This document shows positions 3,053 through 26,247 of a stretch of DNA of 26,247 bases, in pieces. The stretch covers positions 1 to 26,247 of the IMG/VR virus record IMGVR_UViG_3300037755_000418; one strand, 5' to 3'. Source of the stretch: a virus (taxonomy: Duplodnaviria > Caudoviricetes). The notes beneath the pieces were generated by a model that was given only the letters and a program-made list of their open reading frames with translations, did not search any database and was not told the DNA's origin. Position 1 is the stretch's first letter, and each line of letters opens with the position of its first letter. The position numbers and the translations under genes are program-made.

Positions 3053-3161
3053 GAGGGCCGACGCCGACCCGAGATTGGACGGGGATCTCTTGCATCACAC
3101 GAACTTGCCCGGCGGGGCCCACATCGACTCTGTCCGGTACCAGGGGGACTGACCCACACGA

Positions 3162-10548: not shown

Positions 10549-11171
10549 TCACCTCCCCCGAATCGTGGCGGCGAACTGTCTCAGCCGTGCACCCGCCGAT
10601 GCAGGCCTGGTCGCCTGTCCGGTGGGGCGGGGAATGTGCAGCAGTTTGGGGCGGCCGCGGTTCTTGCTGTTGGCGGCGACGAGGATCTGAGCGACCAGAT
10701 GGGTCATCTCGACCGTCAACGCTGCCAGTTCCTCACCGACACCCCACTCGTGGCCGCCCCACGTGCGGGAGCTGTCAGGCAGGCCGCGGACGAGGACCAT
10801 GAGCCGGCGACAGTCCAGAGCGGCGGCGTCGAGCCCGTACGAGCGTTGGATGTCCGCCTCGACTGCTCGCCACCGGTGGGCGATCAGCCAGCCGAGGCTG
10901 CCGATTCCCCCGGGGCCAGCCCGTAGTCCCGGGCGATCTCTTCGAGATGCAGGTCGGTGAGGTGTGCCAGAAGATGCACTTTGAGTTCGTGGTTGCCGCC
11001 GGCGAGCACGTCAGCGAGGAGGGTGAAGTCTTGGTCGCCGATGGCGGCGGCGACCCCGAGGGGCAGCCGGGCCGGGAGGGTGAATGTCCTCCCGGCCAGC
11101 TTGTATCGGCGGGGATCACCCAACGCGGCGGCTACCGCTGCGTCGAGGTCCTTGACTTTGGCGGCGGTCAC
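10549..11171 (-). CDS. Tail assembly chaperone, long form (GT) via -1 frameshift at 10905-10911
   Basis: The -1 frame after GGGGGAA reads GGIGSLGWLIAHRWRAVEADIQRSYGLDAAALDCRRLMVLVRGLP... to the stop at 10549. Fusion is about 207 aa. Confidence 0.85.
10884..11171 (-). CDS. Tail assembly chaperone, short form (G)
   Basis: 95 aa directly after the major tail gene (GTGA overlap), ending ...YGLAPGESAASAG. Confidence 0.85.
   Translation of the reverse strand: MTAAKVKDLDAAVAAALGDPRRYKLAGRTFTLPARLPLGVAAAIGDQDFTLLADVLAGGNHELKVHLLAHLTDLHLEEIARDYGLAPGESAASAG
10905..10911 (-). other. Programmed -1 ribosomal frameshift site G GGG GAA
   Basis: CCG GGG GAA in the G frame. GGGGGAA is the known actinophage tail-chaperone slippery heptamer, and the -1 frame is open to 10549. 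Confidence 0.85.
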
Positions 11172-11737
11172 GATGTAGCGGCGTCGTCGATGCCGACGAA
11201 TGTCAACAGGTTGGTCGGGTCACCGGTCGACAAGACGTCGTAGACGACGTTGATGACCGAGAGGCCGTCGCCGGGAAACTCGAAGCTGTCACCACCCCGG
11301 TTGGAGACCTTTCCGATCCACACGCCGATGTAGCGTGCGCCGTCTTGGATGACGACGAGCATCTCTCGTTCGACCGGGTTGCCGGACTCAGGGACGACCA
11401 GGGTGGCTGTCCCAGAGTTGAACACGGCGCCAGGGAAGAACTCGGCCAGGTTGTCGGCGTTCCACTGGAGCAGCCCGACGTTGACCATCGGTTTTGTGAC
11501 CCGAGTGATGGATCGGACGGGAGCGACGGCGTTCCAGCCGTAGTGTTTCGAGTTGTCGCCTTCGAACCCTTCGAACTGGGGTCCGTCTTCGTCGAGCCAG
11601 CCGACGTGGACCCAGCCGGCTGTTTCGAGGGCGGTCTGGTCGTCGAGGTCGGCTTCGGCGGGGACGCCGGTGCCGAGCGGGGCGAGGTACAGCGACCCGG
11701 CGCTCTTGGCGAGGGTCTCGTCTGATATGAGCGCCAT
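11168..11737 (-). CDS. Major tail (tube) protein
   Basis: 189 aa with GSLYLAPLGT and GWVHVGWLDEDG motifs, GAAAGGAG RBS, and position between the terminator protein and chaperones. Ends ...DDAATS. Confidence 0.9.
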   Translation of the reverse strand: MALISDETLAKSAGSLYLAPLGTGVPAEADLDDQTALETAGWVHVGWLDEDGPQFEGFEGDNSKHYGWNAVAPVRSITRVTKPMVNVGLLQWNADNLAEFFPGAVFNSGTATLVVPESGNPVEREMLVVIQDGARYIGVWIGKVSNRGGDSFEFPGDGLSVINVVYDVLSTGDPTNLLTFVGIDDAATS

Positions 11738-11761: not shown

Positions 11762-12160
11762 TCAGTCGTGGGCGGTGAGGCGGACGGTGAGTTCGTATCG
11801 GGGGCCGGGCTGCCCGGAGACGGGCCAGTCGGGGTCGGGCAGGTAGAGGACACCGCCGAGTGTCTCGACCCGGATGAGGGTTCCGGCGGTTGTGACGTTG
11901 CGGCCGTCGAGGATCGATGAATGCAACGACTGGTAGGCGGCGGTCAGGAGCGTCAACGCCGCCTGTTTCGTGTCGGCCCAGGCGGTGAGCTGGAGGTCCT
12001 GGCGGATGAGCCGGATGGGCTGTGCCGAGTTGGGCAGCGGGCCGCCGCCGGCTTCCTCGATCCTCAGCACCGGTCGGGACACACCGTCGGGGAGCGCGGC
12101 GTATGCGGCGACGCCGGCGGCGTGGAGGATGGTCAGAGTGAGGAGGGCGACGTCGGTCAT
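11762..12160 (-). CDS. Tail terminator protein
   Basis: 132 aa with AGGGP, QLTAWA and LPDPD...PRYELT segments; position just before the major tail gene. Confidence 0.78.
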   Translation of the reverse strand: MTDVALLTLTILHAAGVAAYAALPDGVSRPVLRIEEAGGGPLPNSAQPIRLIRQDLQLTAWADTKQAALTLLTAAYQSLHSSILDGRNVTTAGTLIRVETLGGVLYLPDPDWPVSGQPGPRYELTVRLTAHD

Positions 12161-12426
12161 GCGACTCGGTGGGTGTCGAGCGCCCGTTTGACGGGTCGAC
12201 GGGCCGGGGCGTAGCGGCTGCCGTATTCGACGGCGACGGCGGCTGCGCCGCGGGGCCCGATCCTCACGGTCTGATCGTCAAGGCGATCCCAGGAGATCCC
12301 GACGGGTGCCCGAGTGTTGGCGTTGGCTGTCCGGGCGATCGCTGACGCTGCGTCCTCGACCGCTGCTTTCACTTCCCGGTCGTCGAGGATGGCGTGTTCG
12401 TCGAGCGTGTAGACGGCGCGTGCCAT
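12157..12426 (-). CDS. Neck/tail-completion protein (HK97 gp10-like)
   Basis: 89 aa starting MARAVYT with GGAGG 6 nt upstream. C-terminal AVAVEYGSRYAPARRPVKRALD motif. Confidence 0.72.
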   Translation of the reverse strand: MARAVYTLDEHAILDDREVKAAVEDAASAIARTANANTRAPVGISWDRLDDQTVRIGPRGAAAVAVEYGSRYAPARRPVKRALDTHRVA

Positions 12427-12428
12427 CA

Positions 12429-12776
12429 TCAGCCTCCGTCGTCGGTGATGTGGGTCAGGTCGACGGCGAGATACGCCACGTCGAGGGTGCGGGGGTTGGT
12501 CCACTGTCGGGCCGGGCCGGCCACTTCCAACTCGAGGCCGGTGGCCATGACCAGCCTGTCAGATGTGCCGATGTTGGTTTCTGGCGGAAACCATCCGGTG
12601 TAATCGACCCTTCCGGCGGGACGGTCGGCGACTTCGCCGGACCGGCCGGGTTGGATGTGACAGAGCACGGCGGTGGTGGTCTCTTCCCAGGTGGGGGTGC
12701 CGTAGGCGTCGTCGGGGCCGGTCTGGGTGCGGCGGACGACGAGCGCCTCCTGGCGCATGAGCGCTGTGACTGTCAC
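12429..12776 (-). CDS. Head closure / head-to-tail stopper protein
   Basis: 115 aa with DDAYGTP, CHIQP, SDRL and LEVAGPARQW segments; connector position. Confidence 0.78.
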   Translation of the reverse strand: MTVTALMRQEALVVRRTQTGPDDAYGTPTWEETTTAVLCHIQPGRSGEVADRPAGRVDYTGWFPPETNIGTSDRLVMATGLELEVAGPARQWTNPRTLDVAYLAVDLTHITDDGG

Positions 12777-13198
12777 GGCCAGACAATCGACTGGTCGACG
12801 GGGTCGGCGATGCGGTCAACCCAGTCGATGTCGTCGTCCTGATCTCGGGTGGTCGGCTGCACCCACAGTCCGGTCTTGCCAGCCGCCTTGCGGAGCGCCT
12901 TCTTCTCCGATTCGGTCAACAGCAGGCCGACCATCGACGTGCGGGTGAAGCTGTAGGAGCCGATCGTTTCTTGGGTGGTGCCGGTCGGGTTGGTTTCCGA
13001 GTCGAGTGACGCCTGGTATTTGCGGGCGGCGACCTCAGCGAAGGTGGCCGCCAGGCCGGCGGATATCGGTTCGGTCTGGGCGCCGACGTGGACCTCGGCG
13101 AGCGCCTGGAGGTGGGCGATGAGTTCGACGATGTACTCGTCGTTGTCGAGCTCGATTCGGAGGAGGGTGGCGACTCGGGCGGGGGTGATCCATGCCAT
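12773..13198 (-). CDS. Head-to-tail adaptor
   Basis: 141 aa starting MAWITPARV (GAGGAG upstream). NPTGTTQETIGSYSF...LLLTESEKKAL is the usual actinophage adaptor motif. Confidence 0.82.
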   Translation of the reverse strand: MAWITPARVATLLRIELDNDEYIVELIAHLQALAEVHVGAQTEPISAGLAATFAEVAARKYQASLDSETNPTGTTQETIGSYSFTRTSMVGLLLTESEKKALRKAAGKTGLWVQPTTRDQDDDIDWVDRIADPVDQSIVWP

Positions 13199-13500
13199 CA
13201 GGTTGTCTCCTCGCCGTAGACCACGATCCGGCCGGCGGCTCGGATGGGGATCTCGGGGGCGGATGTGACCCGCAGCCACACCATCCATTCGCCGATGTCG
13301 AGGGCAATGTCCACTCCGAGCAACAGCCTGGCCGAGGCTGTGTTGGCGTCGTATTCGGCGGCGGTCCAGGCCGTCGGGTCGGCGTCAGATCCGTAGACGG
13401 TGAATGCCATCTCGTAGTCGAGGGTGGCGGCAGCGGCTCCGCCGATGGTGGTCGGGACGTAGAGGTGTTCGATCGAGTCGACGTGTATGCGTTGGCTCAT
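13198..13500 (-). CDS. Small beta-rich virion protein (fibre-associated, function unknown)
   Basis: 100 aa, overlapping both neighbours. WTAAEY...ARLLLG...GEWMVWLRVTSAPEIPIRAAG suggests an Ig-like sandwich. Confidence 0.7.
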   Translation of the reverse strand: MSQRIHVDSIEHLYVPTTIGGAAAATLDYEMAFTVYGSDADPTAWTAAEYDANTASARLLLGVDIALDIGEWMVWLRVTSAPEIPIRAAGRIVVYGEETT

Positions 13501-16106
13501 ATGTGTGGCCTCCCCACTGTCCGCAGCGTGGCGGGCGGTTCGACAGAACCTGATCTGGATGGGACCGCTACCAGGCCGGCCACATGAGGGAAGCCGGCGA
13601 GCACGGTCACGTTCGCTGCCTGCTCTGCCTGACCCTCCGCGATGCCAGCCCAGGAGACGGCGCCTGATGCGGAAGCCTGGGGGTCGGTCGTTCCGGCGGC
13701 GATACCGTCCCAGGTGAGCGATCCTGAGCCGGTGCCTTCTGTGACGGAGACGCCGTTGACCGTGCCGAACCAGGTGGCTTCGCCAGTGGCCGATCCTTCG
13801 GAAACGTCGGTGGGGGCTTCTCCGGTGGCGGCACCGTCCCAGGTGATCGACCCTGAGGCGGAGCCTTCCGGGGCGGACACCCCGGTCGCAGCACCCGCCC
13901 AGGTGATCGACCCGTCAGCGGTGCCATCTGAGATGCCGGTGGGGGCTTCTCCGGTGGCGGCACCCGCCCAGGTGATCGACCCTGAGGCGGCGCTTTCCGG
14001 GGCGGACACCCCGGTCGCAGCACCCGCCCAGGTGACCGACCCTGAGGCCACGGCTTCCGGGTTGGATGCGCCGACGGCGGCGCCGACCCATCCGAACGTT
14101 CCTGAAGTGTTGCCCTCGGAGACGAACACCCCGGTCGCAGCACCCGCCCAGGTGACCGACCCTGAGGCGTCTCCTTCGTGGACGGCGGTGCCATCCACAG
14201 CCCCCGCCCAGGTGACCTCACCGGTAGCGTTGCCCTCGGAGGCGGACACACCGGTCGCGCCACCCGCCCATGTGACCGATCCCGCCCCGGATCCTTGATG
14301 GATGCTTGCACCGGTTGCCGATCCGGCCCAGGTGACGGACCCGGTGGTGGTGCCCCCGTGGACGGCTTCGCCGGCGACCGATCCCGCCCATCCGACCGCA
14401 CCGGTCGCTGATCCTTCGGCGGCAACGGGGGTCTGGCCGTCCGCGGCACCGGCCCAGGTGATGTCACCAGTGGCGGAGCCTTGAAGGTCGGCTACACCGT
14501 CCGCGGCACCGGCCCAGGTGATGTCACCAGTGGCGGAGCCCTGAAGGTCGGCTACACCGTCCGCGGCACCGGCCCATCCGACTGTCCCCGGTGCGGCTCC
14601 CTCAGACGTGAATGCACCGGTTGCGGCGCCGACCCAGGAGACTGCTCCGGTTGCGGCGCCGGTACGGACCGCCGCGCCGGTTGCCGATCCCGCCCAAGTG
14701 ACGGTCCCGCTGGTCGCGCCCTCCCGGTCTGTTGTTCCAGTGGCCGAACCGGCCCAGGTGATAGCACCGGAGCCGGCACCGTCAGACCCGTCGGTGGCCG
14801 GGTTCAGGACGATCGACCACCAGGCGTTTTCCTCTGTGGTGGACGTGGACCATGACCACGTTCCGATGGCTCCGGCGGTCGCTTTCGAGCCGTAGAACAA
14901 GCCGACCGACCCGTCTGACCCTTGGTCAGATTCGTACACGCCGACGTCGGTGATCCCGGAGAGTGCAGCGTTCGCGGGCGACGCAGCGTTTGTACCGATC
15001 CCGTCACCATGGGTGAAGAACAGGGCTGCGACGGCGTCCGCGACTGTGGAGGTTTGCCCGGTGACCGCCGAATGCGATGTGACGTTCGTGCCGTCTGATC
15101 CGGACGCGGCGGTGACGTCGAACGGGTCGGCCGGGTCGACCCCGCGGAAAGCGTACGTTCTGGCGATCGTGTGGTTCCCGGCGTCGGGTACCGACGTTGA
15201 TGGTGGACTTCCCGAGTCGTAGATCGCATACCCCAGCGTGGCGCGGGTCCGGTCGACGGCGCCGTCCGTCCCGGATGCGACAGAACCGATCGACGTGTAC
15301 CCGGTGGGGAGACCGTCGGCAGACCCGTCCTCACCTTCGCCCTCGACGAGGATGAAGATGATGTCGTCGTCTTGGATTCCGGCGGGGAGCGCGGCAGTCA
15401 CACCGGCTGTTGATCCGGCGCCGGCGCCGGCGCCGGCGGACGCTATCCCGGTCGGGCCGGCCCCGGTGAGCTCGTCGGGTTCGTCGGTCGAGTAGACGGG
15501 GGTGCCGACCAGTGACAGGTCGTCACCACCAACTGAATCGGTGCCGTTCGTCACATCCGATTCGGAGCCGAACCGGTAGTGGTTCGTGCAAGACCCGGAC
15601 TGGGGTGCTTCGTTCTGGGCTTCGGCGAGCAGGGCGGTGGCGTCGAGCGTCCCCGTCCCGAGTTTCAGGTTCGACGCTTTGCCGTTGAGCGGTTCGGCGG
15701 GTTGCGAGTTCATCACGTCGAACGTGGTGAACGTGTACCCGGACCCGGGGATGCCCGTCTGTGCGGTGCCCGCAGTGACCGACGACCCGCCCGACTCCAT
15801 GTAGTAGGGGGTGAGCGTCCCGGCGGACGTGTTGAACACGAACGCCAGGAAGTACCAGGTGTCGATGGAGAGGGCGACGCCGGTGGATGTGTCGCCGAGG
15901 GTGGTGGACGTTTGGAGGGTGACGCCATCGTTGGTGGTCTGCAACGACAGGTACACCGAGCCGTCGTCGAGACTGAAGAACGACGAGTAGTCGTTGCGGT
16001 CGACATCGAGTTTGAACCAGCCGCACACCCAGAACGACGACCCGAGCGCCAGCCCGGGGGAGAGGGTGCCGGTTAGTCCGTCTAGGCCGTCAGAGTCGAC
16101 CGACAT
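13497..16106 (-). CDS. Large fibre/adhesin-like virion protein: LamG/ConA-like domain, second beta domain, tandem-repeat stalk
   Basis: 869 aa with GGGAGG RBS. FWVCGWFK, DTWYFLAFVF, LNGKASNLK and HYRF...DSVGG match LamG-like jelly-rolls. LPAGIQDDDIIFILV...YAFRGVD domain follows, then 19 Trp-centred repeats. Confidence 0.8.
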   Translation of the reverse strand: MSVDSDGLDGLTGTLSPGLALGSSFWVCGWFKLDVDRNDYSSFFSLDDGSVYLSLQTTNDGVTLQTSTTLGDTSTGVALSIDTWYFLAFVFNTSAGTLTPYYMESGGSSVTAGTAQTGIPGSGYTFTTFDVMNSQPAEPLNGKASNLKLGTGTLDATALLAEAQNEAPQSGSCTNHYRFGSESDVTNGTDSVGGDDLSLVGTPVYSTDEPDELTGAGPTGIASAGAGAGAGSTAGVTAALPAGIQDDDIIFILVEGEGEDGSADGLPTGYTSIGSVASGTDGAVDRTRATLGYAIYDSGSPPSTSVPDAGNHTIARTYAFRGVDPADPFDVTAASGSDGTNVTSHSAVTGQTSTVADAVAALFFTHGDGIGTNAASPANAALSGITDVGVYESDQGSDGSVGLFYGSKATAGAIGTWSWSTSTTEENAWWSIVLNPATDGSDGAGSGAITWAGSATGTTDREGATSGTVTWAGSATGAAVRTGAATGAVSWVGAATGAFTSEGAAPGTVGWAGAADGVADLQGSATGDITWAGAADGVADLQGSATGDITWAGAADGQTPVAAEGSATGAVGWAGSVAGEAVHGGTTTGSVTWAGSATGASIHQGSGAGSVTWAGGATGVSASEGNATGEVTWAGAVDGTAVHEGDASGSVTWAGAATGVFVSEGNTSGTFGWVGAAVGASNPEAVASGSVTWAGAATGVSAPESAASGSITWAGAATGEAPTGISDGTADGSITWAGAATGVSAPEGSASGSITWDGAATGEAPTDVSEGSATGEATWFGTVNGVSVTEGTGSGSLTWDGIAAGTTDPQASASGAVSWAGIAEGQAEQAANVTVLAGFPHVAGLVAVPSRSGSVEPPATLRTVGRPHI
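13630..14790 (-). repeat. Coding tandem repeat, 60-bp/20-aa unit (consensus GSVTWAGAATGxxxxEGxAS), 19 copies
   Basis: 19 W-centred units counted, three of them 22-23 aa. Near-identical 60-bp copies at ~14437-14576 and a 129-bp duplication starting at 13808 and 13937. Confidence 0.92.
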
Positions 16107-16151
16107 ACAACGCCTCCCTGGCGGCGACTACGCCTGGCTGGGCGGCCGCCG

Positions 16152-16499
16152 TCAGGTGGCGGTGCCGGTGATGGTGATGCCGGTCAAGGTGTACTCGCCT
16201 GCTGCGTTGAACGTCTGATCGCCGGTGAGCGGAAGCCACCCGTAGAACGTGCCCGACGTGGAAGCCGACCAGAATCCGATGTGGGTGGCGGGACCCGAGC
16301 TCGCTCCTCCGGTGAATGCCAGGTCGACGGTGGCGACGAGGTCGCCGTTGGCGGCGGTCACCCAGGTGATGGCCTGACGACCGGCGGTCGACTCGTTCGA
16401 GCCGGACCCGTTTGGTTCGGCGGTGTGGATTGCCGCATGGGTCATGGCCGCTTGCATGGCGGCGTTGCCGATGTTGAGGATCGTGTCGTTGAGGGCCAT
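16152..16499 (-). CDS. Small virion structural protein (fibre base/spike-like)
   Basis: 115 aa. IHTAEP..GSNE...RQAITW...THIGFWSASTSGTF is a pattern I recognise from small phage proteins encoded just before fibre genes. Confidence 0.72.
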   Translation of the reverse strand: MALNDTILNIGNAAMQAAMTHAAIHTAEPNGSGSNESTAGRQAITWVTAANGDLVATVDLAFTGGASSGPATHIGFWSASTSGTFYGWLPLTGDQTFNAAGEYTLTGITITGTAT

Positions 16500-16501
16500 G
16501 G

Positions 16502-17155
16502 TCAGGTCTCCAGTCTTGTGGCGTGGTGGGCGGGTCCGGTCCAGTCGATGTCCAGCGCCGACCGGTTCTGGCCGACGAACCAGTGGGCGTGGCGGCCGGA
16601 GTCGGATCGGGCTGGGTTGGCGAGCGAGCGGCCGTCAGGGTGGTCGACTAGTGACGGCAGGGTGTGCCAGCAGTCGACGCCGGTGTGCTCGAAGAATCGT
16701 GAGACCCGCCGGTCGTATTGGCGGACCCGGTCAGGGAGACGATCAGCCCAGGCGACCAGGTCGGGAATCACCGACGTCGGGTAGGCGATGGCGACACCCC
16801 AGGGGAGCCGGTCCATCACGACCCATGACGCCCCGGTGCGGCGGGCATCGGCGACGGTCTGGGCGACCTGACGGGCGAACGGTCGACCGGCACCGAGGTA
16901 GATACTGGATGGCGATCCGGTTGGCACCCGTTCGAGAGCCGCTTCGGTGCTGGCGGTCAGGGCTTGGCAGGGGATGGCGTCGTCTTGGATCACGAGATGC
17001 CATTCGGATGCCGGGTTGAATGCGAGCAGGGCTCGGCGGGCGGTGTCCCACACGTTCCGGTGCTCGTCCCAGACGATGTCGGCTCCGACGGTGGCCGCCA
17101 GTGTCTTTGCCGGGCCGGCCCGCCGGGGGTCGGCCATGACCACGGTCGAGATCAT
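16502..17155 (-). CDS. Glycosyltransferase (GT-A fold, resembling actinophage virion glycosyltransferases)
   Basis: 217 aa from ATG 17155 (ATGA overlap). WHLVIQDDAIP, SIYLGAGRP, YDRRV and TLPSLVDHPD segments. Confidence 0.8.
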   Translation of the reverse strand: MISTVVMADPRRAGPAKTLAATVGADIVWDEHRNVWDTARRALLAFNPASEWHLVIQDDAIPCQALTASTEAALERVPTGSPSSIYLGAGRPFARQVAQTVADARRTGASWVVMDRLPWGVAIAYPTSVIPDLVAWADRLPDRVRQYDRRVSRFFEHTGVDCWHTLPSLVDHPDGRSLANPARSDSGRHAHWFVGQNRSALDIDWTGPAHHATRLET

Positions 17156-17670
17156 GGGTGGATCATGACGCCGAGCTGGCCTGCGCATTCGATGGTGGCA
17201 CCCAGGTCGGTCAGCCATGGCACCGAGGCGGGGGTGGCTCGCAGGTCCTCGACGGCGTACACGCCGCCCGCTGTGACGTGGGGCCACAGTCCGGTCCAGC
17301 TGGCGACGTGCTGGTGATGCTGGTGGCCGCCATCGTCGACGACGAGGTCGAAGGGGGCCCATCGGGCGATCAGGTCGGCGAGGACGGCGGGGCTTGCCTG
17401 ATCGCCGAGCACACGGTGGGCTCGTCCGACGTCGACGCCGGGTCGGTCTGTGACGTCCAATCCGATGATCGTTGCCTGGGGCATCCACTCGGACCACATC
17501 CGCAGCGACCCGCCCCGACCTACCCCGATCTCGAGGACGTTCAACGGGTCAAGACGACGCCGGCCGAGCAGCCGCTCGTAGACGGTCGTGTATCCCTTCG
17601 GGGTGTAGCCGCGGATCGGGCGGGTGCCTTTGTCGGTGTGGTGCCGGTGGGCGAGGTCGTCGAGGGTCAC
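17152..17670 (-). CDS. Class I SAM-dependent sugar O-methyltransferase (MycE/OleY/ElmMI-like)
   Basis: 172 aa from GTG 17670. TDK, YTTVYERLL, VLEIGVGRGGSLRMW, GDQ, FDLVVDDGGH and GGVYAVED are the motif series of that family. Confidence 0.85.
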   Translation of the reverse strand: MTLDDLAHRHHTDKGTRPIRGYTPKGYTTVYERLLGRRRLDPLNVLEIGVGRGGSLRMWSEWMPQATIIGLDVTDRPGVDVGRAHRVLGDQASPAVLADLIARWAPFDLVVDDGGHQHHQHVASWTGLWPHVTAGGVYAVEDLRATPASVPWLTDLGATIECAGQLGVMIHP

Positions 17671-18299
17671 CGGTCGATTCCCGCTTCTTTCAGGATCGCC
17701 GACGCGCGGTCTGGGGGGAGTGGTTTGCCGTTCTGCCAGGAGGTGGACAGGTTGTTTCCGTGGACGACCTGGCACCAGGACGGTTCGGTGACGTGGTGGA
17801 TTCGGCGGCCGTGCCGGGCCTTGCCGTGGTCGCCGCCGGTGGTGAGCATCCGTTCCCGCCGGTCGTGAGCGACCGCCAGGAACGGCCCGGACGGATACTT
17901 GCGGGCGGCGACAGTTCCGGCGTGCCAGTCGAGTTGGTAGCCGAAGTCGAACGACACGACCCCACCGGGTGCCACGCTATGCGGGCGGAGTGCGGTCGGC
18001 ATGTAGGCGTCGTCGGAGTCGAGCCGGAACGTGAGGAACCGGGAGGCGTCCGGCCACACCCGATCGTCGGTGACTTGATCCTCCAGGACGACGACCGGAG
18101 TGGGATGGAGAGTGGAGGCGATTTCGGTCACCTGGTCCAGCCTTTCGGGGCACGTCCGCCACACCCAGCAGGCGTCGGATGCGAGCACGGTGGTGGCGGT
18201 GATCCGGCGGAGCATTTCGGCCCGGTCGGTCACCCATCTCCCGGATGGCACCCGGTCCGCCCATCGGATGGCGACTCTTGTGACGACGACGAGCCTCAC
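17667..18299 (-). CDS. Glycosyltransferase, putative rhamnosyl-transferase-like family
   Basis: 210 aa from GTG 18299. VVTR...W..DR, TFRLDSDDAY, GYQLD, GPFLAV and PSWCQVVHGNNLS segments. Confidence 0.75.
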   Translation of the reverse strand: MRLVVVTRVAIRWADRVPSGRWVTDRAEMLRRITATTVLASDACWVWRTCPERLDQVTEIASTLHPTPVVVLEDQVTDDRVWPDASRFLTFRLDSDDAYMPTALRPHSVAPGGVVSFDFGYQLDWHAGTVAARKYPSGPFLAVAHDRRERMLTTGGDHGKARHGRRIHHVTEPSWCQVVHGNNLSTSWQNGKPLPPDRASAILKEAGIDR

Positions 18300-19102
18300 A
18301 GGAGGCGCCTGAGCTTGGACGCTGCGGCCGACACCGCGGTGGCGGTCGCTTGTCGGGGGGCGAGCACATCCGGCCAGCGGTCGGCGGGCACTCGCATGGC
18401 TTTGGCCCACAGGACCCGCCGTTGACGGTGCGCCTGCCGGCGGACACTGGACCTCATTCCCGTGCGGGGGCTTCGGGACATCGATGTGGGCAGTGCGTCA
18501 ACGTGGTAGAGGGGCTCGTCGATCTGTCGGCAGCGGAGATGTAGGGCGGCGAGTCCGACCATCATCGTGTCGAAGCCGACGACGTAGTCGGGGTGGGGAC
18601 CGCCAATCGACCGGAGTGCATCGGCCCGCCACAACGCCACATGGTTCCCGAGGTTTCGGAGCTGCTTTGACGCCTCGTCCAGTCGTGGCGTCTTGACGAC
18701 GACCCGGTCGCCGTCGTGGACGACGACCGGCCCGAACACGACATCGGCAGATCGGGACTGGCTGCGAAGTTTGGCGAGCCGCTGAGGGTCGGACCAGTCG
18801 TCGGCGTCGTGTGGTGTCCACCAGGTCGTTTGTGCGGCGGCGAGGGTGACGGCGTCGGCGAAGTAGCGGCCCCGGTTGGCGGTCAGGTCGAATCGGATGA
18901 GCCGGGGGTCGTCGATGTCGGCCAGCACATGCCAGGGAAACCGGCGGTCTCCGTCGTTGACGACGACCAGTTGAAGCCGGCGGAATGTCTGGCCGAGCAC
19001 CGAATCGACGGCCCGGCGGAGTGTCGCCCCGCACCGGTAGGCGGGCATGGACACGGTGACGAGTGGGGACGGGTGTCCCTCCGTCCCCACTCGTCCGGTC
19101 AC
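18296..19102 (-). CDS. Glycosyltransferase family 2
   Basis: 268 aa from GTG 19102, overlapping the capsid stop. VTVSMPAY, AVDSVLGQT, LVVVNDGD, NRGRY and HDADDWSDPQRL motifs. Confidence 0.92.
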   Translation of the reverse strand: MTGRVGTEGHPSPLVTVSMPAYRCGATLRRAVDSVLGQTFRRLQLVVVNDGDRRFPWHVLADIDDPRLIRFDLTANRGRYFADAVTLAAAQTTWWTPHDADDWSDPQRLAKLRSQSRSADVVFGPVVVHDGDRVVVKTPRLDEASKQLRNLGNHVALWRADALRSIGGPHPDYVVGFDTMMVGLAALHLRCRQIDEPLYHVDALPTSMSRSPRTGMRSSVRRQAHRQRRVLWAKAMRVPADRWPDVLAPRQATATAVSAAASKLRRLL

Positions 19103-20028
19103 GACGTGGCGTCGACGATCTTGACGGCCCGGCGGAGCACCCGCACCGAGTTGGCGTCGGTCGGGTCGACCGGGTCGGTCACGACCGCCGAACCGATGTA
19201 GCTGTTGAGCACCGAGCGGTCCTGCAGGGTCGAGGAGTCGTAGTCCCGGATCGACCGGATGGCCAACCCGTCGAGCACCTGGCTGGAGCCTTCGGCGCCG
19301 GCGGTGGGCACCATCGGCGCCCGGTTTGCCATGACGAACGCCTCCCGGTGAAACGCGTACGCTTCGCCGTCGTCGATGGCGTTCGAGCCGACGACCTGGA
19401 ACCCGGCGATCGGGCGGGCGATGGTGGCCGTCTGGATGGCAGTCGCCGCGTCGGCGCCGCCACCGTCGACCCTCGACACCCGCTCGTCCTGGAGCAGGTC
19501 CGCTTCGATCTGGGCGCCGCACACGAGCACCCGGCCTGAGCGGGGCACGTTGAGGGCGTTCAGTTTGCGGCCGGCGTTGACCACCGACCCGAACGGGTCG
19601 GCCGCGTCCCACTCCTGGGTGTTGGTCGTGGTCGGATAGGTGGCACCGGTGATGGTGGTCGCCAGGTTGTCCTCGAGCCGGTCGACGACGGCCCGCAGCT
19701 GCGGGCGGAGGACCTGTTGCACGAACTCGACGATGTTGAGGGTGAGGGTGGCGTCGGGTGTCGCGACCGCCGAGTACACGTCTTCGGTCAGTTGGACCGC
19801 CACCGGGAACTCGACGACGTCGTCGGTGGTGATGGCAGCGGTCGCTCCGATGGTTCGGGTGCGGGCCGTCATCTTCGCAGGCAGTCGGACGGTGACGGTG
19901 TCCCCGATCTTGCCGGAGAACTCGGCGACGGCGTCTCGCCAGACGAGCATCGGCAGGACGGTGTTGCGGTTGAGTACGCCGAGCACGGCTCGGGCGATCA
20001 CCTGGGGGGTGAGGATGTTGTGGGCCAT
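19099..20028 (-). CDS. Major capsid protein (HK97 fold, P22-coat-like family)
   Basis: 309 aa after the scaffold gene, AGGAGG RBS. LVWRD...EF...GDTVTVRLP, LNALNVPRSGR and IAGFQVVGSN segments. Ends ...IVDATS. Confidence 0.92.
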   Translation of the reverse strand: MAHNILTPQVIARAVLGVLNRNTVLPMLVWRDAVAEFSGKIGDTVTVRLPAKMTARTRTIGATAAITTDDVVEFPVAVQLTEDVYSAVATPDATLTLNIVEFVQQVLRPQLRAVVDRLEDNLATTITGATYPTTTNTQEWDAADPFGSVVNAGRKLNALNVPRSGRVLVCGAQIEADLLQDERVSRVDGGGADAATAIQTATIARPIAGFQVVGSNAIDDGEAYAFHREAFVMANRAPMVPTAGAEGSSQVLDGLAIRSIRDYDSSTLQDRSVLNSYIGSAVVTDPVDPTDANSVRVLRRAVKIVDATS

Positions 20029-20072
20029 GGTTGGCGCCTCCTATCTGGTTCGGTGCCGCCCGGCCGTGCTGC

Positions 20073-20588
20073 TCACAGCGGGCCGATCTGGGCGGCGAGT
20101 TTCAGCGGATCGATCTCCGGTTCCGCTTCGGGGTTGGATCCGCCCCGCAGCTTCTCTTTCGCCTTTTGGCTGGGAGGTTGCTTGACGGGTGGGTTGTCGT
20201 CGGTTCTGAGGCCGAGCGCCTCGATCGCTTCGTCGGCTTCGGCTTCGAGCTCGTCGACGGTGGTGCCGGTCATCCGGGATGCGATGAAGGCGGGCAGCTT
20301 CTTCGCGTGGGCGACCTGCGCCACGAGGGCGTCCCGTTCGGCCTTCTCGGCCCGGGACGTGAGCGCGGCAATCTGCTCTTGGACCTTCTGCATGTCGGAC
20401 TTGGACGAGTCCTGGTCCTTCTTGAGGGCGGCCAGTTCGTCGTCTTTCGCCTTGGCGTCGAGGCGGTACTTCTTGGCTTCTTCGTTGGCCTTGTGGAGCG
20501 CCGCCTGCATCTTCTCGATGTCGTCGGCGGTGGGTCCTGTCGGCTTGGGAGGGTTGTCGCCCGTCACGGGCTTGTCGGCGTCAGCCAT
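20073..20588 (-). CDS. Capsid scaffolding protein
   Basis: 171 aa from MADADKP (GAAAGGA upstream). Charged coiled coil with ANEEAKKYR, GTTVDELEAEAD and LRGG segments. Confidence 0.88.
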   Translation of the reverse strand: MADADKPVTGDNPPKPTGPTADDIEKMQAALHKANEEAKKYRLDAKAKDDELAALKKDQDSSKSDMQKVQEQIAALTSRAEKAERDALVAQVAHAKKLPAFIASRMTGTTVDELEAEADEAIEALGLRTDDNPPVKQPPSQKAKEKLRGGSNPEAEPEIDPLKLAAQIGPL

Positions 20589-20639
20589 CTCGGCTGTCCT
20601 TTCGGTCGTTGCCGACCCCATCACGGGGTCAACGGGGAC

Positions 20640-21251
20640 TCAACGGAACTCTGGTTCGCCGGTGCAGCGGCATCCGTCGTGGGCGGCGAAGGAGACGGAC
20701 TCCTCACCGAACACCGCCCCTCTGACGGCCAGCGACTCACAGAAGGTGCAGGCGTTGCCGGATGTGACCCGCATCCACCCGCCCGATCGGGGATCACGAC
20801 GGGCAGTCTCGACGATGACGGCGCGGCCGCCGGTGAGGGCGTGTCGCTGAGCGGATCGGGCGGTTTCGGTGAGTGCCGTCCTGGTCGCCGCTTCGATGGA
20901 GGCGGACCGTCGGATTGCCCGTTCGATGCGGACGGGGCCGGTCACGGCCAGTGACGTGCGGACGGCTTCCTCGACGAGCGGTGGGGCTGCCAGTGTGCCG
21001 GTGAGTGGCACTCCGAGCTCGGCGACCCGGAGCGCCTGGTAGTAGCGGCGGGCCAAGTCGGCGGAGATTCCATGCTGTGTGGAGATCATTCGCACCGCCG
21101 CGTCGATCCACACCGGCGACGTCTCGGCGAGCGCAGTCGGGTCGAGGAGTCGCCACAGGTCCCGCATCTGCACCCCGGTCGCCACTCCCACCCGCACCTG
21201 CGCCAGCCGATGTGTCTCGGTCAACTGGCGGCCCCGGGATGTGGCGGCCAT
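20640..21251 (-). CDS. MuF-like head morphogenesis / capsid maturation protein
   Basis: 203 aa between portal and scaffold, with WMRV...ACTFCESLAVRG...AHDGCRC...P motif. Confidence 0.82.
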   Translation of the reverse strand: MAATSRGRQLTETHRLAQVRVGVATGVQMRDLWRLLDPTALAETSPVWIDAAVRMISTQHGISADLARRYYQALRVAELGVPLTGTLAAPPLVEEAVRTSLAVTGPVRIERAIRRSASIEAATRTALTETARSAQRHALTGGRAVIVETARRDPRSGGWMRVTSGNACTFCESLAVRGAVFGEESVSFAAHDGCRCTGEPEFR

Positions 21252-22609
21252 CAGCCGGCGGGTGGCAGAGCGGAATCGCCGCCGGCCAGTTGAGCGATGA
21301 GCGCTTCAAACCCGCCGTCGTCCATGAGCGCTTTGGCTCGTTCGACGTCCTGTTGGGTCCAGCCGGGGATCTTCTCCCACAGCATCTGCACCGGGACACG
21401 CAGCATTTGGGCGAGTTTGCCGAGGGCGTCGGCGGCCTGGGCGAGCGACCTGATCTCGGTGTCCCGCCACACGACCTGTGCGTCGAACGCCTCGGCCCCT
21501 TCCGAGTCGCCTTGGACGTGGGCGGCGAGCCGGAGGGTCTGCTCCCACGACTCGCCGAACGAGGCTTGCCGTTCCGCGACCTTCGCCGACAAGGACGCCC
21601 GGGCGGCGGCGAGCGCCTCAGCGGACAAGTTGACCATCTGTCCGAGCAGGTTGTCCGGTGGGGTTTGTGACACGGCTGCCAGGTCGCGGATGTCGGACTC
21701 CCGGGCCTTGATGTAGCCGTCGAGGGGCGTTCCGGCGAGCGTCCCAAACTTCGTGTCGGGTGATTCGGACACGAGGATGTCTTCCATGCGGAGACGCAGT
21801 TTTTCGGCGGCGACCGACGTCGTGTTGCCGTCACCGTCGACGGCTGCGGCGGGCATCTCCATTCCGGAGATGGTCCGGACGCTCCACGCCCCGAACCGTT
21901 GCACGACCAAGCGGTCAAACGTGTCCTGGTCGATGCGGGCTGCGAGGGCGATGAGTGGCGATACTTCGCCGGCGGATCGTCCATCGAGGTCGAGTTGGTT
22001 GGCGAAACGGATCACCGGGCAAACCCCGGCGCCGTGGACGTCGAATGTGACGAACTCGGGTGACGTCTGGTCGCCGTCGAAGGTGTACACGGCGTCGGCG
22101 TCATACAGCCGCCACCGCATCTTCTGGCCTCGCAGGTGATCGGCGCGGATGGCGTATTCCGGCCACTCGTCCTCAGCCGGATCTCGATAGAGCGCTATCA
22201 TCCTGCGGGCGGACACACCCCGGATGACAGCTGTGTCCCCGCCGCCCGGCAGCACCGTTGCATAGGCGAGTCCATGAGCGAGCGCTCCTCGGTGGACGGC
22301 CGCCTGTCGTGCGTCGAGGCCGTTGCGTTGCCAGGCAGCCCACCCGGCAGCGTTGTCGGGGTCGTCGGCTCGACGGTACCCGTCGACGTACAGCGCCTGG
22401 GCAACAGCGGTCACGACCAGCGACAGCCACGGCGTCCGAGACCGGTCCTGGAGCTCCCGGTACTCGAGTGTGGACCGGTTGGGCATCCATGGTTTCTCGT
22501 TCTCGCCGCGGTACCAGTTGTCGACCTTGGTCGTCGACCGCCGGTTCGACTGCCATTCGTCGATGTAGAGGCGCAACACTTCGGCGGCTTGGCGGGGAGT
22601 CATCGGCAT
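21251..22609 (-). CDS. Portal protein (SPP1 gp6-like)
   Basis: 452 aa from MPMTPR (GGAGG upstream). TPWLSLVV, WQRNGLD, GVCPVIRF, NLSAEAL and WRDTEIRSLAQAADALGKL segments. Confidence 0.93.
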   Translation of the reverse strand: MPMTPRQAAEVLRLYIDEWQSNRRSTTKVDNWYRGENEKPWMPNRSTLEYRELQDRSRTPWLSLVVTAVAQALYVDGYRRADDPDNAAGWAAWQRNGLDARQAAVHRGALAHGLAYATVLPGGGDTAVIRGVSARRMIALYRDPAEDEWPEYAIRADHLRGQKMRWRLYDADAVYTFDGDQTSPEFVTFDVHGAGVCPVIRFANQLDLDGRSAGEVSPLIALAARIDQDTFDRLVVQRFGAWSVRTISGMEMPAAAVDGDGNTTSVAAEKLRLRMEDILVSESPDTKFGTLAGTPLDGYIKARESDIRDLAAVSQTPPDNLLGQMVNLSAEALAAARASLSAKVAERQASFGESWEQTLRLAAHVQGDSEGAEAFDAQVVWRDTEIRSLAQAADALGKLAQMLRVPVQMLWEKIPGWTQQDVERAKALMDDGGFEALIAQLAGGDSALPPAG

Positions 22610-22622
22610 TGCTTGACCTCCA

Positions 22623-24413
22623 TCACCAGATCTTGCCGGCACGTTTTCCGGTCGCCGAGCTGCGGGCCGACGACACGACCCGGCGGACCATGCGGGCACC
22701 GATCACGCACACGGCGGCGTCGATCTTCAGCGGCGACATCGGGGATTCCTTGCCGATGCCGACGGCATCTCGGTGGGGCCGCCGGCGGGCGTTGCCCATG
22801 TGCCGGCCTGTTGCCGGGTGGCCGTCGTGTGTGAACAGCGCCGGCCGGCCAGCTCGGACGGCCTTGAAGGACTCCTCGATGTCGTCGAGGGTGGCCTCGG
22901 TGGCTTTGGCGAACTCGTAGGCGTGGGATCGCATGTCCCAGGCGACAGCTTGGGGTGGCCTCGACGCAGGGGACGCCCACACTTCCAACCGGTCGCCGTA
23001 CCGGCGGGGCCATTCAGTGAGAGCGAAGGATTCCCATTCCCGGACGTCGGCGAAAAAGGCCTTGACCTGATGGTTGGCGAACGCGAGGGACACCACCCGG
23101 TCGACATCGGCCACGTCGACTGTCGAGTTGGGGTCGTTCTGGTCCGGTTCCCAGACTCCGAGGGTGAACACGTGGCCGTCAGAAATGCGACATCCGACCA
23201 GGGCGGTGGCGTCACGGCTTTTCGAGCCGTCGAAGAACAACACGACCGGGTCGCGAGGCTCGACGGTGACGGAGTGGTCGGTCATCACCGACCACCATTC
23301 CGGTTCGATCCACGCGTCCTGCGCTGCGGTCGGACGGTTCAGGTACTTTCGTCGCGAGTCGTCGGGCCGGGCTTTCGGGGACCAGATCCGGTTCATGATC
23401 GATGTCACGTCGGGCGGCTGGTCGAGTTGTGGTTCGCCGTCGACATGCGGCTTCTTCCAGTCGCAGTCGTCATAGAGGACCTCGAGGGCCGGTCGCAGCG
23501 AGTCGGGAAGCGACATGTCGGTGTCGGGTGGGGCGATTACCGCGTCGTACAGGATCCGGCCTTCTGTCCGGTAGCGGCCTTCTTCTTGGGCGACCCACGC
23601 CTGGTGTGATCCTTCTGCGACCGTTTGACGGCCGGGCACCCACGAGTTGGCTGTTTCGACCATCCGGGACCCGGACTTGGCGAGGTTGTCCTCGAGGGTG
23701 GAGGCCAGTTCGACTCCACCGTTCGTCGGGGTCCACAACTCGGTTTCGTCGGCGACGACCAGCGACGACTCCGCACCCTCAGCAGCGGTCGCTGAAGAGG
23801 TGATGATCTCCAGCGTTCCCTCCGGAACCCGGTAGTACTGGGTCTTGCCCGGGTCCAGGTTGTAGGCGGCGACGATCGGGGACTTCTTCGGAGCGAACGC
23901 TCGCACCATCCGCATCGTGTTTGCCGTCTGCGACTCGGCGGTCGCGGCGATCTGGACGAGTGGCATGTCGACGGGTTTGCCGCGGACACCGCCGGGGATC
24001 CGATCGTCGAAGCAGACGAAGCGGACCGGGGCGAGGAAGTCGATCAGCGCCAGGACCGCGGCAAACGGTGACTTGCCGGTGCCCTTGGCCAGCCTTCGTG
24101 CGCCATGGGTGTAGACCCACCTGCCGTGATCGTCGACGGCGTACCACCAGAGCAAGAACCTTGTTTGACGTCGGGTGAGCCGGAACGGCAGGCCACCTCG
24201 TGGCCCGTTCGGTTGGGTCAGCCCGGTCCACTGTTGTTTCCAGCCGTCGCCCACCCAGACGGCGCCTCGGGTCCAGGCGGCGGCGTGGAATCCGATGGTG
24301 CGAAGTCCCACGTGGGCTGGTACGCAGTCGGCACAGTCGGGGGTGCAGCGGGGGAGCGTGTCGAGGCGGTCAGCTGGTGCGGTCTTGACGGTACTGTTCC
24401 AACCAGGCGACAT
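22623..24413 (-). CDS. terL: Terminase large subunit
   Basis: Walker A RRLAKGTGKS, Walker B VVADETE, nuclease motifs FFDGSKSRDATAL and KIDAAV. Confidence 0.95.
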   Translation of the reverse strand: MSPGWNSTVKTAPADRLDTLPRCTPDCADCVPAHVGLRTIGFHAAAWTRGAVWVGDGWKQQWTGLTQPNGPRGGLPFRLTRRQTRFLLWWYAVDDHGRWVYTHGARRLAKGTGKSPFAAVLALIDFLAPVRFVCFDDRIPGGVRGKPVDMPLVQIAATAESQTANTMRMVRAFAPKKSPIVAAYNLDPGKTQYYRVPEGTLEIITSSATAAEGAESSLVVADETELWTPTNGGVELASTLEDNLAKSGSRMVETANSWVPGRQTVAEGSHQAWVAQEEGRYRTEGRILYDAVIAPPDTDMSLPDSLRPALEVLYDDCDWKKPHVDGEPQLDQPPDVTSIMNRIWSPKARPDDSRRKYLNRPTAAQDAWIEPEWWSVMTDHSVTVEPRDPVVLFFDGSKSRDATALVGCRISDGHVFTLGVWEPDQNDPNSTVDVADVDRVVSLAFANHQVKAFFADVREWESFALTEWPRRYGDRLEVWASPASRPPQAVAWDMRSHAYEFAKATEATLDDIEESFKAVRAGRPALFTHDGHPATGRHMGNARRRPHRDAVGIGKESPMSPLKIDAAVCVIGARMVRRVVSSARSSATGKRAGKIW

Positions 24414-24906
24414 CGGGCACTGCCTCCTGCTCTGTCACCCTTTCGAGCTCGATCCTGACACGCCGGCGGGCGCCTTCCGTGGTGAGGAGCTCGGTGGCGC
24501 CGACCTGCCAGCGTTCGATCAGGGCGGCGGTCATCTTTCCGCCAGAAAGTGACCTCGAGAGGATCTCGGCGAGGACTTTGGCTGTGGCCCAGTCGGACGG
24601 CTGGTAGAAGATGGCCTGTCCCGACTTCTCGAGCGATTCGAACCATTCGCGGGCAGCCGGGTGCCATTCGTTGGGACTGGCGTGGCCGGCGACCACGAGG
24701 GCGATGATCTCCTCGCGTTTGAGACCGTCGGCGACGACGTGGCCGAGGGAGGTGGCGTACGCGATCCACGCCGCCTTCGACGCTCCCCGACCGGAGCGGG
24801 GCGGCTGGGACGGAGATGGGACGGGGACCCGGTCGTTGGCCTCGGCGATCCAGTCGTTGCGGTGGCGGCGGCGCTGGTCCGACCGCTTGGGCACTGGTCC
24901 TCTCAT
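24370..24906 (-). CDS. terS: Terminase small subunit
   Basis: RGPVPKRSDQRRR N-terminus, WHPAAREWFESLEKSGQAIFYQPSDW core and LLTTEGARRRVRIEL, as in actinophage TerS; directly before TerL. Confidence 0.88.
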   Translation of the reverse strand: MRGPVPKRSDQRRRHRNDWIAEANDRVPVPSPSQPPRSGRGASKAAWIAYATSLGHVVADGLKREEIIALVVAGHASPNEWHPAAREWFESLEKSGQAIFYQPSDWATAKVLAEILSRSLSGGKMTAALIERWQVGATELLTTEGARRRVRIELERVTEQEAVPDVAWLEQYRQDRTS

Positions 24907-25373
24907 CGGCCACCGCCGATGGTGGCGCAGGCGGCCGCGAAGTCGCGGACGTCATCTGACCAAAGGCCGTGGCGGTTGACGACCTCGAGGAACTCTTCGA
25001 TGTCGTGGCCCCGGATCCGCAGGATCAAGTCGCCGGTGTCCTCGTCTTCGTCGACGGCGAAGTGGCAGAGCTCGTGGTCTACGAGGGCCCGTCGGGCCGT
25101 GTCGTCGAGGGCGTGCCAAATGTCGCCGGCGAGTTCCATCACGAAGAAGGAGTGATCGACGTCGGGCTCGGCTGTGCCGGCGGCCAGGGCTGTCATGAAA
25201 GCGGAGAGCCCTGACACCTTGCGGGCTTTGGCAGCAACGGCGCGACCTTTGGAGACCGCGGCCGGGGACCGGAACACATAGAGGATCGGAATGCCCAGCA
25301 GGTGCATGTGGTTTTCGGCGATCAGCGGCCCAGCGATTTCGGCGGCGGTGGGGGCTGGCGACCAGGTTGGCAC
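24903..25373 (-). CDS. Putative phage metallopeptidase
   Basis: ALVDHELCH (HExxH) with downstream HDIEEFLEVVNRHGLW. GTG 25373 has GAGGTG upstream; 25382 is the alternative start. Confidence 0.85.
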   Translation of the reverse strand: MPTWSPAPTAAEIAGPLIAENHMHLLGIPILYVFRSPAAVSKGRAVAAKARKVSGLSAFMTALAAGTAEPDVDHSFFVMELAGDIWHALDDTARRALVDHELCHFAVDEDEDTGDLILRIRGHDIEEFLEVVNRHGLWSDDVRDFAAACATIGGGR

Positions 25374-25399
25374 GATATCCACCTCTGGTGATGTCGAAA

Positions 25400-25485
25400 T
25401 CTGGAAACCCGTTCGGGGGGTCAGCCGCTATGCCCACCGACCTCGGCACGCAGGGGGGGGGAGGGGGGTTACCCCCCACCCTCCT
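25400..25485. other. Probable cos/packaging-initiation region
   Basis: Non-coding gap just downstream of the HNH gene and before the terminase block. Contains G9/G6 runs and the palindrome GGGGGG-TTA-CCCCCC (25463-25477). The call is positional inference from HNH-assisted cos phages. Confidence 0.5.
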
Positions 25486-25488
25486 CCA

Positions 25489-25773
25489 TCATGAGATCAA
25501 GCCCGGGTGTGGCGGTGAGGGTCGGAGGCGGTCGCTGTTGGCGAGGCGGATGGCGATGGCGTCGCTGCCCGTCTTGGTGGCGTGGCACCGATGGCATACG
25601 CCCCGCAGCATGTGGGGTCGATGGTCATCGTGCGCGCCGATGTGGTCGACTTCGGTGGATGGTGCTCCGTCGCAGTGGATGCGGAGGGTGCATTGTGGGT
25701 CTCGTGCGAGAATCGCCCGGCGTCGGCGCTGCCAGTCTGGTGGCAGTTGGGATCGTCTGCGGCCCTGGCTCAT
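25489..25773 (-). CDS. HNH endonuclease (terminase-associated, HK97 gp74-like)
   Basis: 94 aa: LPPDW...RRAILARD..C....C...STEVDHI...LRGVCHRCHATKT...HPG. Confidence 0.92.
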   Translation of the reverse strand: MSQGRRRSQLPPDWQRRRRAILARDPQCTLRIHCDGAPSTEVDHIGAHDDHRPHMLRGVCHRCHATKTGSDAIAIRLANSDRLRPSPPHPGLIS

Positions 25774-25812
25774 CGGGCTGGCTGGGTGCGCGGGTCGGGC
25801 ACCCTGGACGCG

Positions 25813-25841
25813 AACCTACACGTCCGAAGCGGTTTGTGCAA
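25813..25841 (-). promoter_or_regulatory. Candidate sigma70-type late promoter TTGCAC-N17-TAGGTT
   Basis: -35 at 25836-25841 and -10 at 25813-25818 with a 17-nt spacer, in the intergenic gap about 40 nt upstream of the HNH start. Confidence 0.55.
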
Positions 25842-25896
25842 GGACTTGACCCCGTTGGCTGTTGCGGCGTATGGGCTCATGGTGCGGTCACGAGGT

Positions 25897-26247
25897 TCAG
25901 GTGGCGAGCTTGTTTCTGCATGCGGGGCAGTGGACCATTTCGATTGCCGAGCCGCCGCCGGTTTCGATGTGCCTCGGGATCCGTTTGTTCTCGGCGGCGC
26001 ATCCCCGGGTGCGGCATCGGACGGTTCCGAGTTCCTTTGTGGTGGCGCGAGCGGCGGGTGGGAGCGGTGTGTAGTCGTCGAGGACCTTGGACCAGTAGGC
26101 GGATACGGCGCGGCCGATGGTGGTTTCCAGGGACCGGCGAGCTCTGGCGGCTAGCGGGTTGACACCTCCGGGGGGCCGGGAGGTTGGTTTTCCGGTGTGG
26201 CCGCCGGCTTCGCCGATGGGTGTGGTGGTGGTTGGTGCGGTGGCGGT
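25897..26247 (-). CDS. Zinc-finger protein, 5' part outside the window (possible late-gene regulator)
   Basis: Not in the track. The open frame reads ...GKPTSRPPGG...VRCRTRGC...VHCPACRNKLAT* with four Cys in two pairs. It is the last gene before the late promoter. Confidence 0.7.
   Translation of the reverse strand, partial: TATAPTTTTPIGEAGGHTGKPTSRPPGGVNPLAARARRSLETTIGRAVSAYWSKVLDDYTPLPPAARATTKELGTVRCRTRGCAAENKRIPRHIETGGGSAIEMVHCPACRNKLAT

Follow-up and report, generated by a model that had tools for sequence, protein, structure and literature searches.

A capsid-linked gene cassette predicted to glycosylate the virion of an uncultured actinophage

What might a phage achieve by carrying three putative glycosyltransferase (GT) genes and a methyltransferase gene immediately behind the gene for its major capsid protein? 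The question is raised by IMG/VR record IMGVR_UViG_3300037755_000418, a 26-kb siphovirus late region on the minus strand that is ~37% complete; the window discussed below is the whole analyzed stretch of 26,247 nucleotides. Its genes run in the order terminase, portal, protease-like, scaffold, and capsid, followed by head-tail, tail, and lysis genes (Pfam and PHROG scans), and the four genes in question lie directly 3' of the capsid gene (Table 1). Judged from sequence comparisons and structural models, the phage probably glycosylates its own virion, which is the best reading of this cassette. The virion is favored as the acceptor because one of the enzymes is homologous to Che8 gp110 and Corndog gp38, because the proteins of capsid and tail tube share an ATS ending, and because serine endings are associated with transferase genes among relatives. 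The initial annotation had proposed a multi-sugar, O-methylated glycan on the virion; glycosylation of the virion stands as the favored interpretation, and methylation of the glycan is kept as a more guarded prediction.

The cassette genes are intact, with open reading frames of 268, 210, 172, and 217 amino acids (aa). As had been claimed, they are chained to the capsid gene and to each other by four 4-nt overlaps, whose letters are GTGA (19102-19099), GTGA (18299-18296), GTGA (17670-17667), and ATGA (17155-17152). The starts are backed by homolog alignments that begin at residue 1-6, and by a relative (L093) that shares the capsid/GT2 overlap and has the order terminase-portal-scaffold-capsid (ending DLTS)-GT2-PF11316-like gene-methyltransferase before the contig ends. 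A later start at 18233, offered by the gene caller for the PF11316-like gene, was dropped because homologs align from residue 1-5. Contigs of runs X9 and X10, neither of which is marked as a possible source of the record, cross the capsid/GT2 junction and thus rule out an assembly artifact; one contig of X7, a possible source run, covers 14547-20600. In agreement with the earlier claim that no terminator follows the capsid gene, no terminator-like site was found on the minus strand from 20028 to 16106 in a scan that requires a T-run and so is a weak test, and a terminator between the capsid and GT2 genes is unlikely because the overlap leaves zero intergenic space. The sole minus-strand terminator-like site within 12000-26247 lies at 23255. 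Nothing specific to the cassette was read into the 4-nt overlaps because such overlaps are frequent across the operon, occurring in 10 of the 27 neighboring called gene pairs of the window, 6 of them outside the cassette. They represent ordinary late-gene coupling and no special link between capsid and cassette.

The last gene of the cassette connects it to known systems of virion glycosylation. Its product matches Corndog gp38 at 33% (expectation value, E, 4e-20) and Che8 gp110 at 34% (E 1e-18), two proteins that have been named essential for capsid glycosylation (PMC12363180). The closest cultured homolog is Pas35 of phiAsp2 (38%, E 3e-35). An intact GT-A motif is present as QDD at residues 57-59, and a structural model (predicted local distance difference test score, pLDDT, 94.6) gives GT-A matches to POMGnT1 and GnT-I; a precorrin reductase match (E 0.002) and weaker PDB sequence matches were rejected in favor of these structural ones. 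The protein, assigned to phrog_854, matches 449 of 50,697 cultured-phage records, and 409 IMG/VR stretches encode a gp110-family relative. As a single query, the protein found 0 relatives in 239 stretches of genome contigs, and in viral-contig scans with single sequences this phage was the sole match. Among the best 79 other loci of the 409 stretches, a methyltransferase lies within a few genes of the gp110-family gene in 60, sometimes fused to a transferase, and at least two transferase genes are nearby in 52. These adjoining methyltransferases fall in several unrelated classes (FkbM, Methyltransf_24, and Methyltransf_25).

A second line of evidence is provided by the predicted acceptors. The capsid protein ends in DATS and the tail tube protein in AATS, and hence both carry the same three-residue ending. 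Freeman et al. in 2023 reportedly described linkage to the terminal serine. One literature search limited to papers from 2022 on found none on C-terminal serine O-glycosylation of phage capsids by glycosyltransferases. The corresponding subunits end in KTGS and SDGS in Che8 and in LVGS and KGDS in Corndog, and mycobacteriophage glycans sit at the capsid and tail tube C-termini (PMC12619734). Three of the 28 called genes in the window end in Ser; the background in the fetched loci is 418 of 3492 called genes for Ser and 5 of 3492 for ATS. A 213-aa gene that closes the tail module (5005-5646, minus strand), with no family match and an IGTS ending, is the only called gene besides those for the capsid and tail tube that ends in Ser, and it could encode a third acceptor.

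Comparison among capsid relatives extends the link between serine endings and transferases beyond this phage. Relatives were picked from IMG/VR by a motif that lies clear of the C-terminus (the best 80 of 106), with a query built from cassette-bearing capsids, which biases the sample toward those clades. Full capsid calls, available for 73 of the 80 loci, were clustered at 80% identity into 45 groups; of these, 7 were too short to judge and were set aside. Transferase labels came from our own gene calls, clustering, and PHROG and Pfam scans of representatives; because most records are fragments, some loci scored as lacking transferases may carry them elsewhere. A Ser-ending capsid was found in 23/25 groups whose locus includes a transferase versus 6/13 whose locus does not (Fisher p 0.003), and at 65% identity in 14/15 versus 5/10 (p 0.02). 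When the relatives, the window, and 12 cultured phages were pooled, both subunits ended in Ser in 17 of 21 genomes with neighboring transferases and in 1 of 22 without, and the lone exception has a Stealth-like gene at the corresponding position. The 12 cultured phages were hand-picked from capsid match lists and are all gp110-family negative; among them, Ser ends one capsid and two tail tubes, and never both in the same phage. Also, the last three residues of capsid and tail tube are shared more often within transferase-bearing genomes than between shuffled pairs (1.48 versus 1.15, p 0.003), with no excess in other genomes (0.45 versus 0.46). A looser criterion, which accepts Ser at either of the two final positions in each subunit (21/21 versus 2/22), was set once the data had been seen and is not the main support.

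The relatives offer further observations. Four transferase-bearing loci (L225, L222, L229, and L194) have Ser second-last on one or both subunits (FPSA/IESA, DASS/DASF, and GTSS/DSSL), which suggests that the acceptor need not be the last residue. In one clade (L198, L199, L204-L206, L208, L212, L213, L216, L218, L219, and L224), capsid and tail tube both end in Ser, and GT2 and phrog_14945 genes are present without a gp110-family gene, even in records that are 93-100% complete; this clade may use another initiating enzyme. Stealth-like genes (PF11380, below cut-off: L248 10117-11295, L253 5472-6179, L247 4480-5175, and L187 8496-9212) occupy the capsid-to-tail slot in several relatives with Ser-ending capsids; a variant in which sugar phosphate is transferred to virions is possible. 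Other cassettes carry a formyltransferase (L244 11758-12402), a TupA-like ATP-grasp protein (L247 3728-4483), an NTP transferase (L222 2735-3460), or a 2OG-Fe(II) oxygenase (L034 8041-8718), implying that glycan decorations probably vary among relatives.

The two remaining transferase candidates are predicted to extend the chain. GT2 scores 53.9 bits against PF00535 versus a curated cut-off of 23.3, has a DADD motif at residues 99-102, and matches a chondroitin synthase domain (E 8e-5). It is soluble by its hydropathy peak of 1.19 (19-residue window); none of the four cassette enzymes has a membrane-like segment, and their peaks of 0.8-1.2 compare with 2.3 for the holin. The PF11316-like protein itself has no Pfam match at E 0.01. 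Of its aligned relatives, 32/69 match PF11316, and it resembles PF11316 clusters in the Atlas (0.96; template modeling score 0.84). Residues D94, D96, and D97 form an invariant DxD motif, and the model (pLDDT 96.4) adopts a GT-A fold, its best match being glycosyltransferase 6p61 (Z 11.0, root-mean-square deviation 3.5, 154 aligned). Among the fetched loci, its profile matches only L093, L017, and two genes of L138; a representative library holds 143 relatives, and the enzyme is absent from cultured phages in a collection of 50,697 records. In a literature search, no biochemical characterization of PF11316 was found. The earlier label of a rhamnosyltransferase-like enzyme thus survives as far as the GT-A fold and DxD motif go; "rhamnosyl" is annotation borrowed from the putative name of a Pfam family that this protein does not match directly. 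Otherwise, the enzyme identities first proposed (GT2, a MycE/OleY-like methyltransferase, and a third GT) are upheld by profiles, homologs, and models, and both structural models that were made, of the PF11316-like and gp110-type proteins, fold as GT-A, in answer to the concern that GT-A active sites might be lacking.

The methyltransferase matches MycE (3ssm, E 4e-22) and the TylE-type structure 8ia9 (E 1e-21). The MycE match spans only chain residues 201-328, and the protein has 172 aa versus about 400. The active site of MycE consists of Tyr208, Asp275, His278, and Asp304 (PMC9275233). Residues D113, H116, E141, and D142 are invariant in 33 aligned homologs and are the equivalents of MycE Asp275, His278, and Glu303/Asp304, as counted along the alignment with a 20-residue tag assumed; in MycE, Asp275, His278, and Asp304 provide the metal ligands and the base. 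Phage homologs include Omega gp17 (33%, E 2e-18) and McProf gp44 (35%). The enzyme appears to work like MycE yet is not a full family member. Given that the virion is glycosylated, O-methylation of the glycan is a reasonable expectation from these similarities, held with less assurance than glycosylation itself.

Several findings weigh against the proposal that this cassette glycosylates the virion in the manner envisaged. The serine association comes from related rows: only 4 (capsid) and 3 (both subunits) independent, well-supported tree contrasts were available. Their means lie in the expected direction (2.7 versus 0.1 for the capsid and 2.4 versus 0.0 for both), and a sign test on them does not reach significance (median p of 0.25 and 0.5, respectively). 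Exceptions occur on both sides, as 7/25 capsids without a nearby transferase still end in Ser and, in gp110-family loci, 6/23 capsid groups lack a terminal Ser. Among characterized phages, the capsid of phiAsp2, which has a gp110-type gene, ends in Leu, and that of Omega ends in Ala; because of phiAsp2, other acceptors must exist for some gp110-family members. As for the enzymes, GT2 and the PF11316-like protein are not homologous to Corndog gp36/gp37 or Che8 gp108/gp109, nucleotidyltransferases, too, match the PF11316-like fold, at a Z only slightly lower (about 9), and the methyltransferase lacks both the Tyr208 loop (a seven-residue gap) and the N-terminal auxiliary domain of MycE.

If the virion is the acceptor, the four soluble enzymes would be produced alongside the capsid protein in the late phase of infection, presumably by co-translation. 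The gp110-type enzyme would add the first sugar, O-linked, to the terminal Ser of capsid and tail tube subunits, and GT2 and the PF11316-like enzyme would then lengthen the chain in an order that can only be proposed. The MycE-type enzyme possibly methylates a hydroxyl of one of these sugars and may cap the chain. Donors would presumably be host nucleotide sugars used in the cytoplasm during assembly; as the initial annotation had noted, no sugar-synthesis gene, including any for nucleotide sugars, is recognized in the window by Pfam and PHROG scans. A more specific version, which we regard as speculative, is that, in an actinobacterial host without mycolates, a cytoplasmic O-glycosylation system encoded by the phage reads a short C-terminal tag common to capsid and tail tube (ATS in this phage) and builds a glycan capped by an O-methyl-deoxysugar (e.g., 2-O-methyl-rhamnose) through a PF11316-family enzyme and a MycE catalytic domain that is minimal and stands alone. 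If this were true, paired Ser ends would allow glycan-coated virions to be predicted from the genomes of actinophages at large, whatever their transferases.

Table 1. Cassette genes, predicted acceptors, and neighboring genes in the window
Feature	Coordinates	Strand	Basis
Major capsid protein, 309 aa, ends VDATS, predicted acceptor	19099..20028	-	phrog_283 E 1.6e-50, PF11651
GT2 glycosyltransferase, 268 aa, predicted chain extender	18296..19102	-	PF00535 E 2.6e-14
PF11316-like GT-A-fold protein, 210 aa, predicted chain extender	17667..18299	-	Family members, Atlas, model
Compact MycE/TylE-type methyltransferase, 172 aa, S-adenosylmethionine (SAM)- and metal-dependent, predicted sugar O-methyltransferase	17152..17670	-	MycE 3ssm
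Che8 gp110/Corndog gp38-family glycosyltransferase, 217 aa, predicted initiator	16502..17155	-	phrog_854 E 2e-38
Tail tube (major tail) protein, 189 aa, ends DAATS, predicted second acceptor	11168..11737	-	PF25681 E 7.6e-26, phrog_117
Gp80-like structural protein, 115 aa, ends Thr, possible further acceptor	16152..16499	-	PF23140 E 2e-9, phrog_240
869-aa accessory protein, LamG-like N-terminus, rival acceptor	13497..16106	-	Atlas, phrog_19249 minor tail E 2e-8

The alternative with the best prospects is compatible with virion glycosylation and affects one enzyme: glycosylation is real, and the methyltransferase is degenerate or acts on another molecule. The missing loop and domain point this way, as do the unrelated classes of methyltransferase found beside gp110-family genes and our failure to find a paper showing a methylated virion glycan. 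The invariance of the Asp275, His278, and Asp304 equivalents across the 33 homologs and the presence of a methyltransferase in 60/79 gp110-family loci, some of them transferase-fused, make this possible but doubtful. It is considerably less probable that the enzymes glycosylate the adjoining accessory proteins in place of the capsid and tail tube. The Gp80-like and 869-aa genes lie directly downstream of the cassette after a 2-nt gap, and the 869-aa protein contains 24% Ser+Thr and has repeats, yet most gp110-family loci lack these two genes and still have Ser-ending capsid and tail tube proteins, and such acceptors leave the common ATS ending unexplained. The top Atlas match of the 869-aa protein is 0.91, to a cluster of which 38% carries PF13385. 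This protein has about 17 Trp-Gly motifs spaced about 20 residues apart, and a contig of X11 reads lacks one 60-nt unit; the number of these repeats may vary.

Modification of something other than the particle would be harder still to reconcile with the data. Transferases of temperate phages are known to act on the host surface (PMC12619734), GT2 and PF11316 relatives are found in bacteria, and ParB-like genes on L257, a longer contig of the same DNA, would permit a plasmid-like prophage state, all of which could fit serotype conversion or superinfection exclusion through altered host glycans. This explanation is nevertheless very unlikely: the genes are tied into the late operon by their overlaps, their products have no membrane-like segments, no flippase or lipid-carrier gene is recognized in the window, no integrase was found among the scanned ORFs, and the serine pattern is left unexplained. 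The least probable alternative, to which we attach hardly any weight, is that the cassette enzymes attach sugars to the phage's DNA as a hypermodification. DNA-glycosylating transferases are known from phages (bioRxiv 10.1101/2023.12.21.572611), and the window encodes DNA methyltransferases at 2-3159. These genes are about 13 kb from the cassette in a block of lower G+C content, however, and Pfam and PHROG scans recognize no cytosine methyltransferase, hydroxymethylase, or 5-methylpyrimidine dioxygenase beside the cassette, whose gp110 family has a reported protein acceptor. Glycosylation of the virion remains the preferred reading.

The genome setting provides clues to the host. L257 is identical to the window across 10,700 bases and runs on into ParB-like, ParB/WhiB-like, and replication-initiator genes (14234-17643) that are oriented as the late genes are; no integrase was found among the scanned ORFs. 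WhiB proteins are not known outside actinobacteria. An actinobacterial host is likely because of this WhiB-like gene, the G+C content of 67%, and the closest cultured capsid, that of Streptomyces phage Attoomi (43%). The lysis module in the window comprises an amidase-type endolysin, a holin, and one further gene. The absence of lysin B, which had been asserted for the phage, holds for this module and for 13 scanned ORFs of L257, an extent limited by a record that is ~37% complete; a non-mycolate host is plausible on these genomic grounds. Two DNA methyltransferase genes, an 849-aa Eco57I/N6-type frame and a 332-aa N4/N6-type gene (2-3159, minus strand, continuing into L257 10001-11321), sit between the lysis and early genes in a block of G+C content 0.57-0.64 versus 0.67-0.70 around it, which looks like an acquired restriction-modification-type insert. 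At the other end, a putative phage metallopeptidase (PF18894; 24903-25373, minus strand) is flanked by HNH and small terminase genes, and L093 has one too.

For specialists, these findings are useful rather than surprising, as the concept is published. They widen the likely range of virion glycosylation to an uncultured soil/sediment actinophage lineage, and they offer a small four-gene set for testing the role of cassette methyltransferases and what the PF11316 family transfers. Paired terminal Ser residues might also offer an inexpensive way to predict which virions are glycosylated.

Only a few mycobacteriophages (Che8, Corndog, and Myrna) have been demonstrated to glycosylate their virions, which shields the particles from antibodies (PMC12363180). 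In cluster O, an O-methyltransferase and three transferases lie between portal and protease genes, for which modification of the capsid with methyl groups and glycans was suggested (PMC4351075) and later restated as shown for capsid and tail tube (PMC11600133); in cluster J, transferases and methyltransferases lie between capsid and connector genes, with targets left open (PMC3706429). The present cassette resembles Corndog gp35-gp38 of cluster O in its tandem O-methyltransferase and three GTs with short overlaps in the head module, in its homologous last gene (gp38), and in its Ser-ending capsid and tail tube. Unlike that of Corndog, the block follows the capsid gene, the lysis module lacks lysin B, and the methyltransferase is MycE-type, matching gp35 over the SAM motif only (E 0.035). 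Che8 (cluster F1) likewise ends its transferase run gp108-gp110 with the homologous gene and has Ser-ending subunits, but the run is at the far genome end and no stand-alone methyltransferase gene is annotated. Omega (cluster J) has a transferase and a methyltransferase directly after its capsid gene (gp16-gp17, gp17 being homologous), but its capsid ends in Ala and gp15-gp18 include no gp110-type gene. The Actinoplanes phage phiAsp2 (AY576796) has consecutive genes for a GT, an O-methyltransferase, and a gp110-type protein (pas33-pas35) shortly after its head gene; its capsid ends in Leu and its methyltransferase belongs to another class. In McProf (BK061309; gp43-gp45), the counterparts of the methyltransferase and of the gp110-type gene (gp44 and gp45, respectively) are ordered as here, in a block that precedes the terminase genes. 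Relative to MycE, TylE, and ThnM1 (3ssm, 8ia9; PMC9275233), the methyltransferase keeps the catalytic domain and its Asp275, His278, and Glu303/Asp304 equivalents within a far shorter chain.

The suggested extension of known biology by three GTs and a methylase is therefore overstated, given the published composition of cluster O and the precedents of the cluster J insert and phiAsp2, the last of which is also a non-mycolate precedent. The difference lies in the two predicted extending enzymes, which are unrelated to those of Che8 and Corndog. This kind of cassette is already published; what is particular here is the combination of a PF11316-like enzyme, a minimal MycE domain, a gp110-type initiator, and identical three-residue endings on capsid and tail tube.

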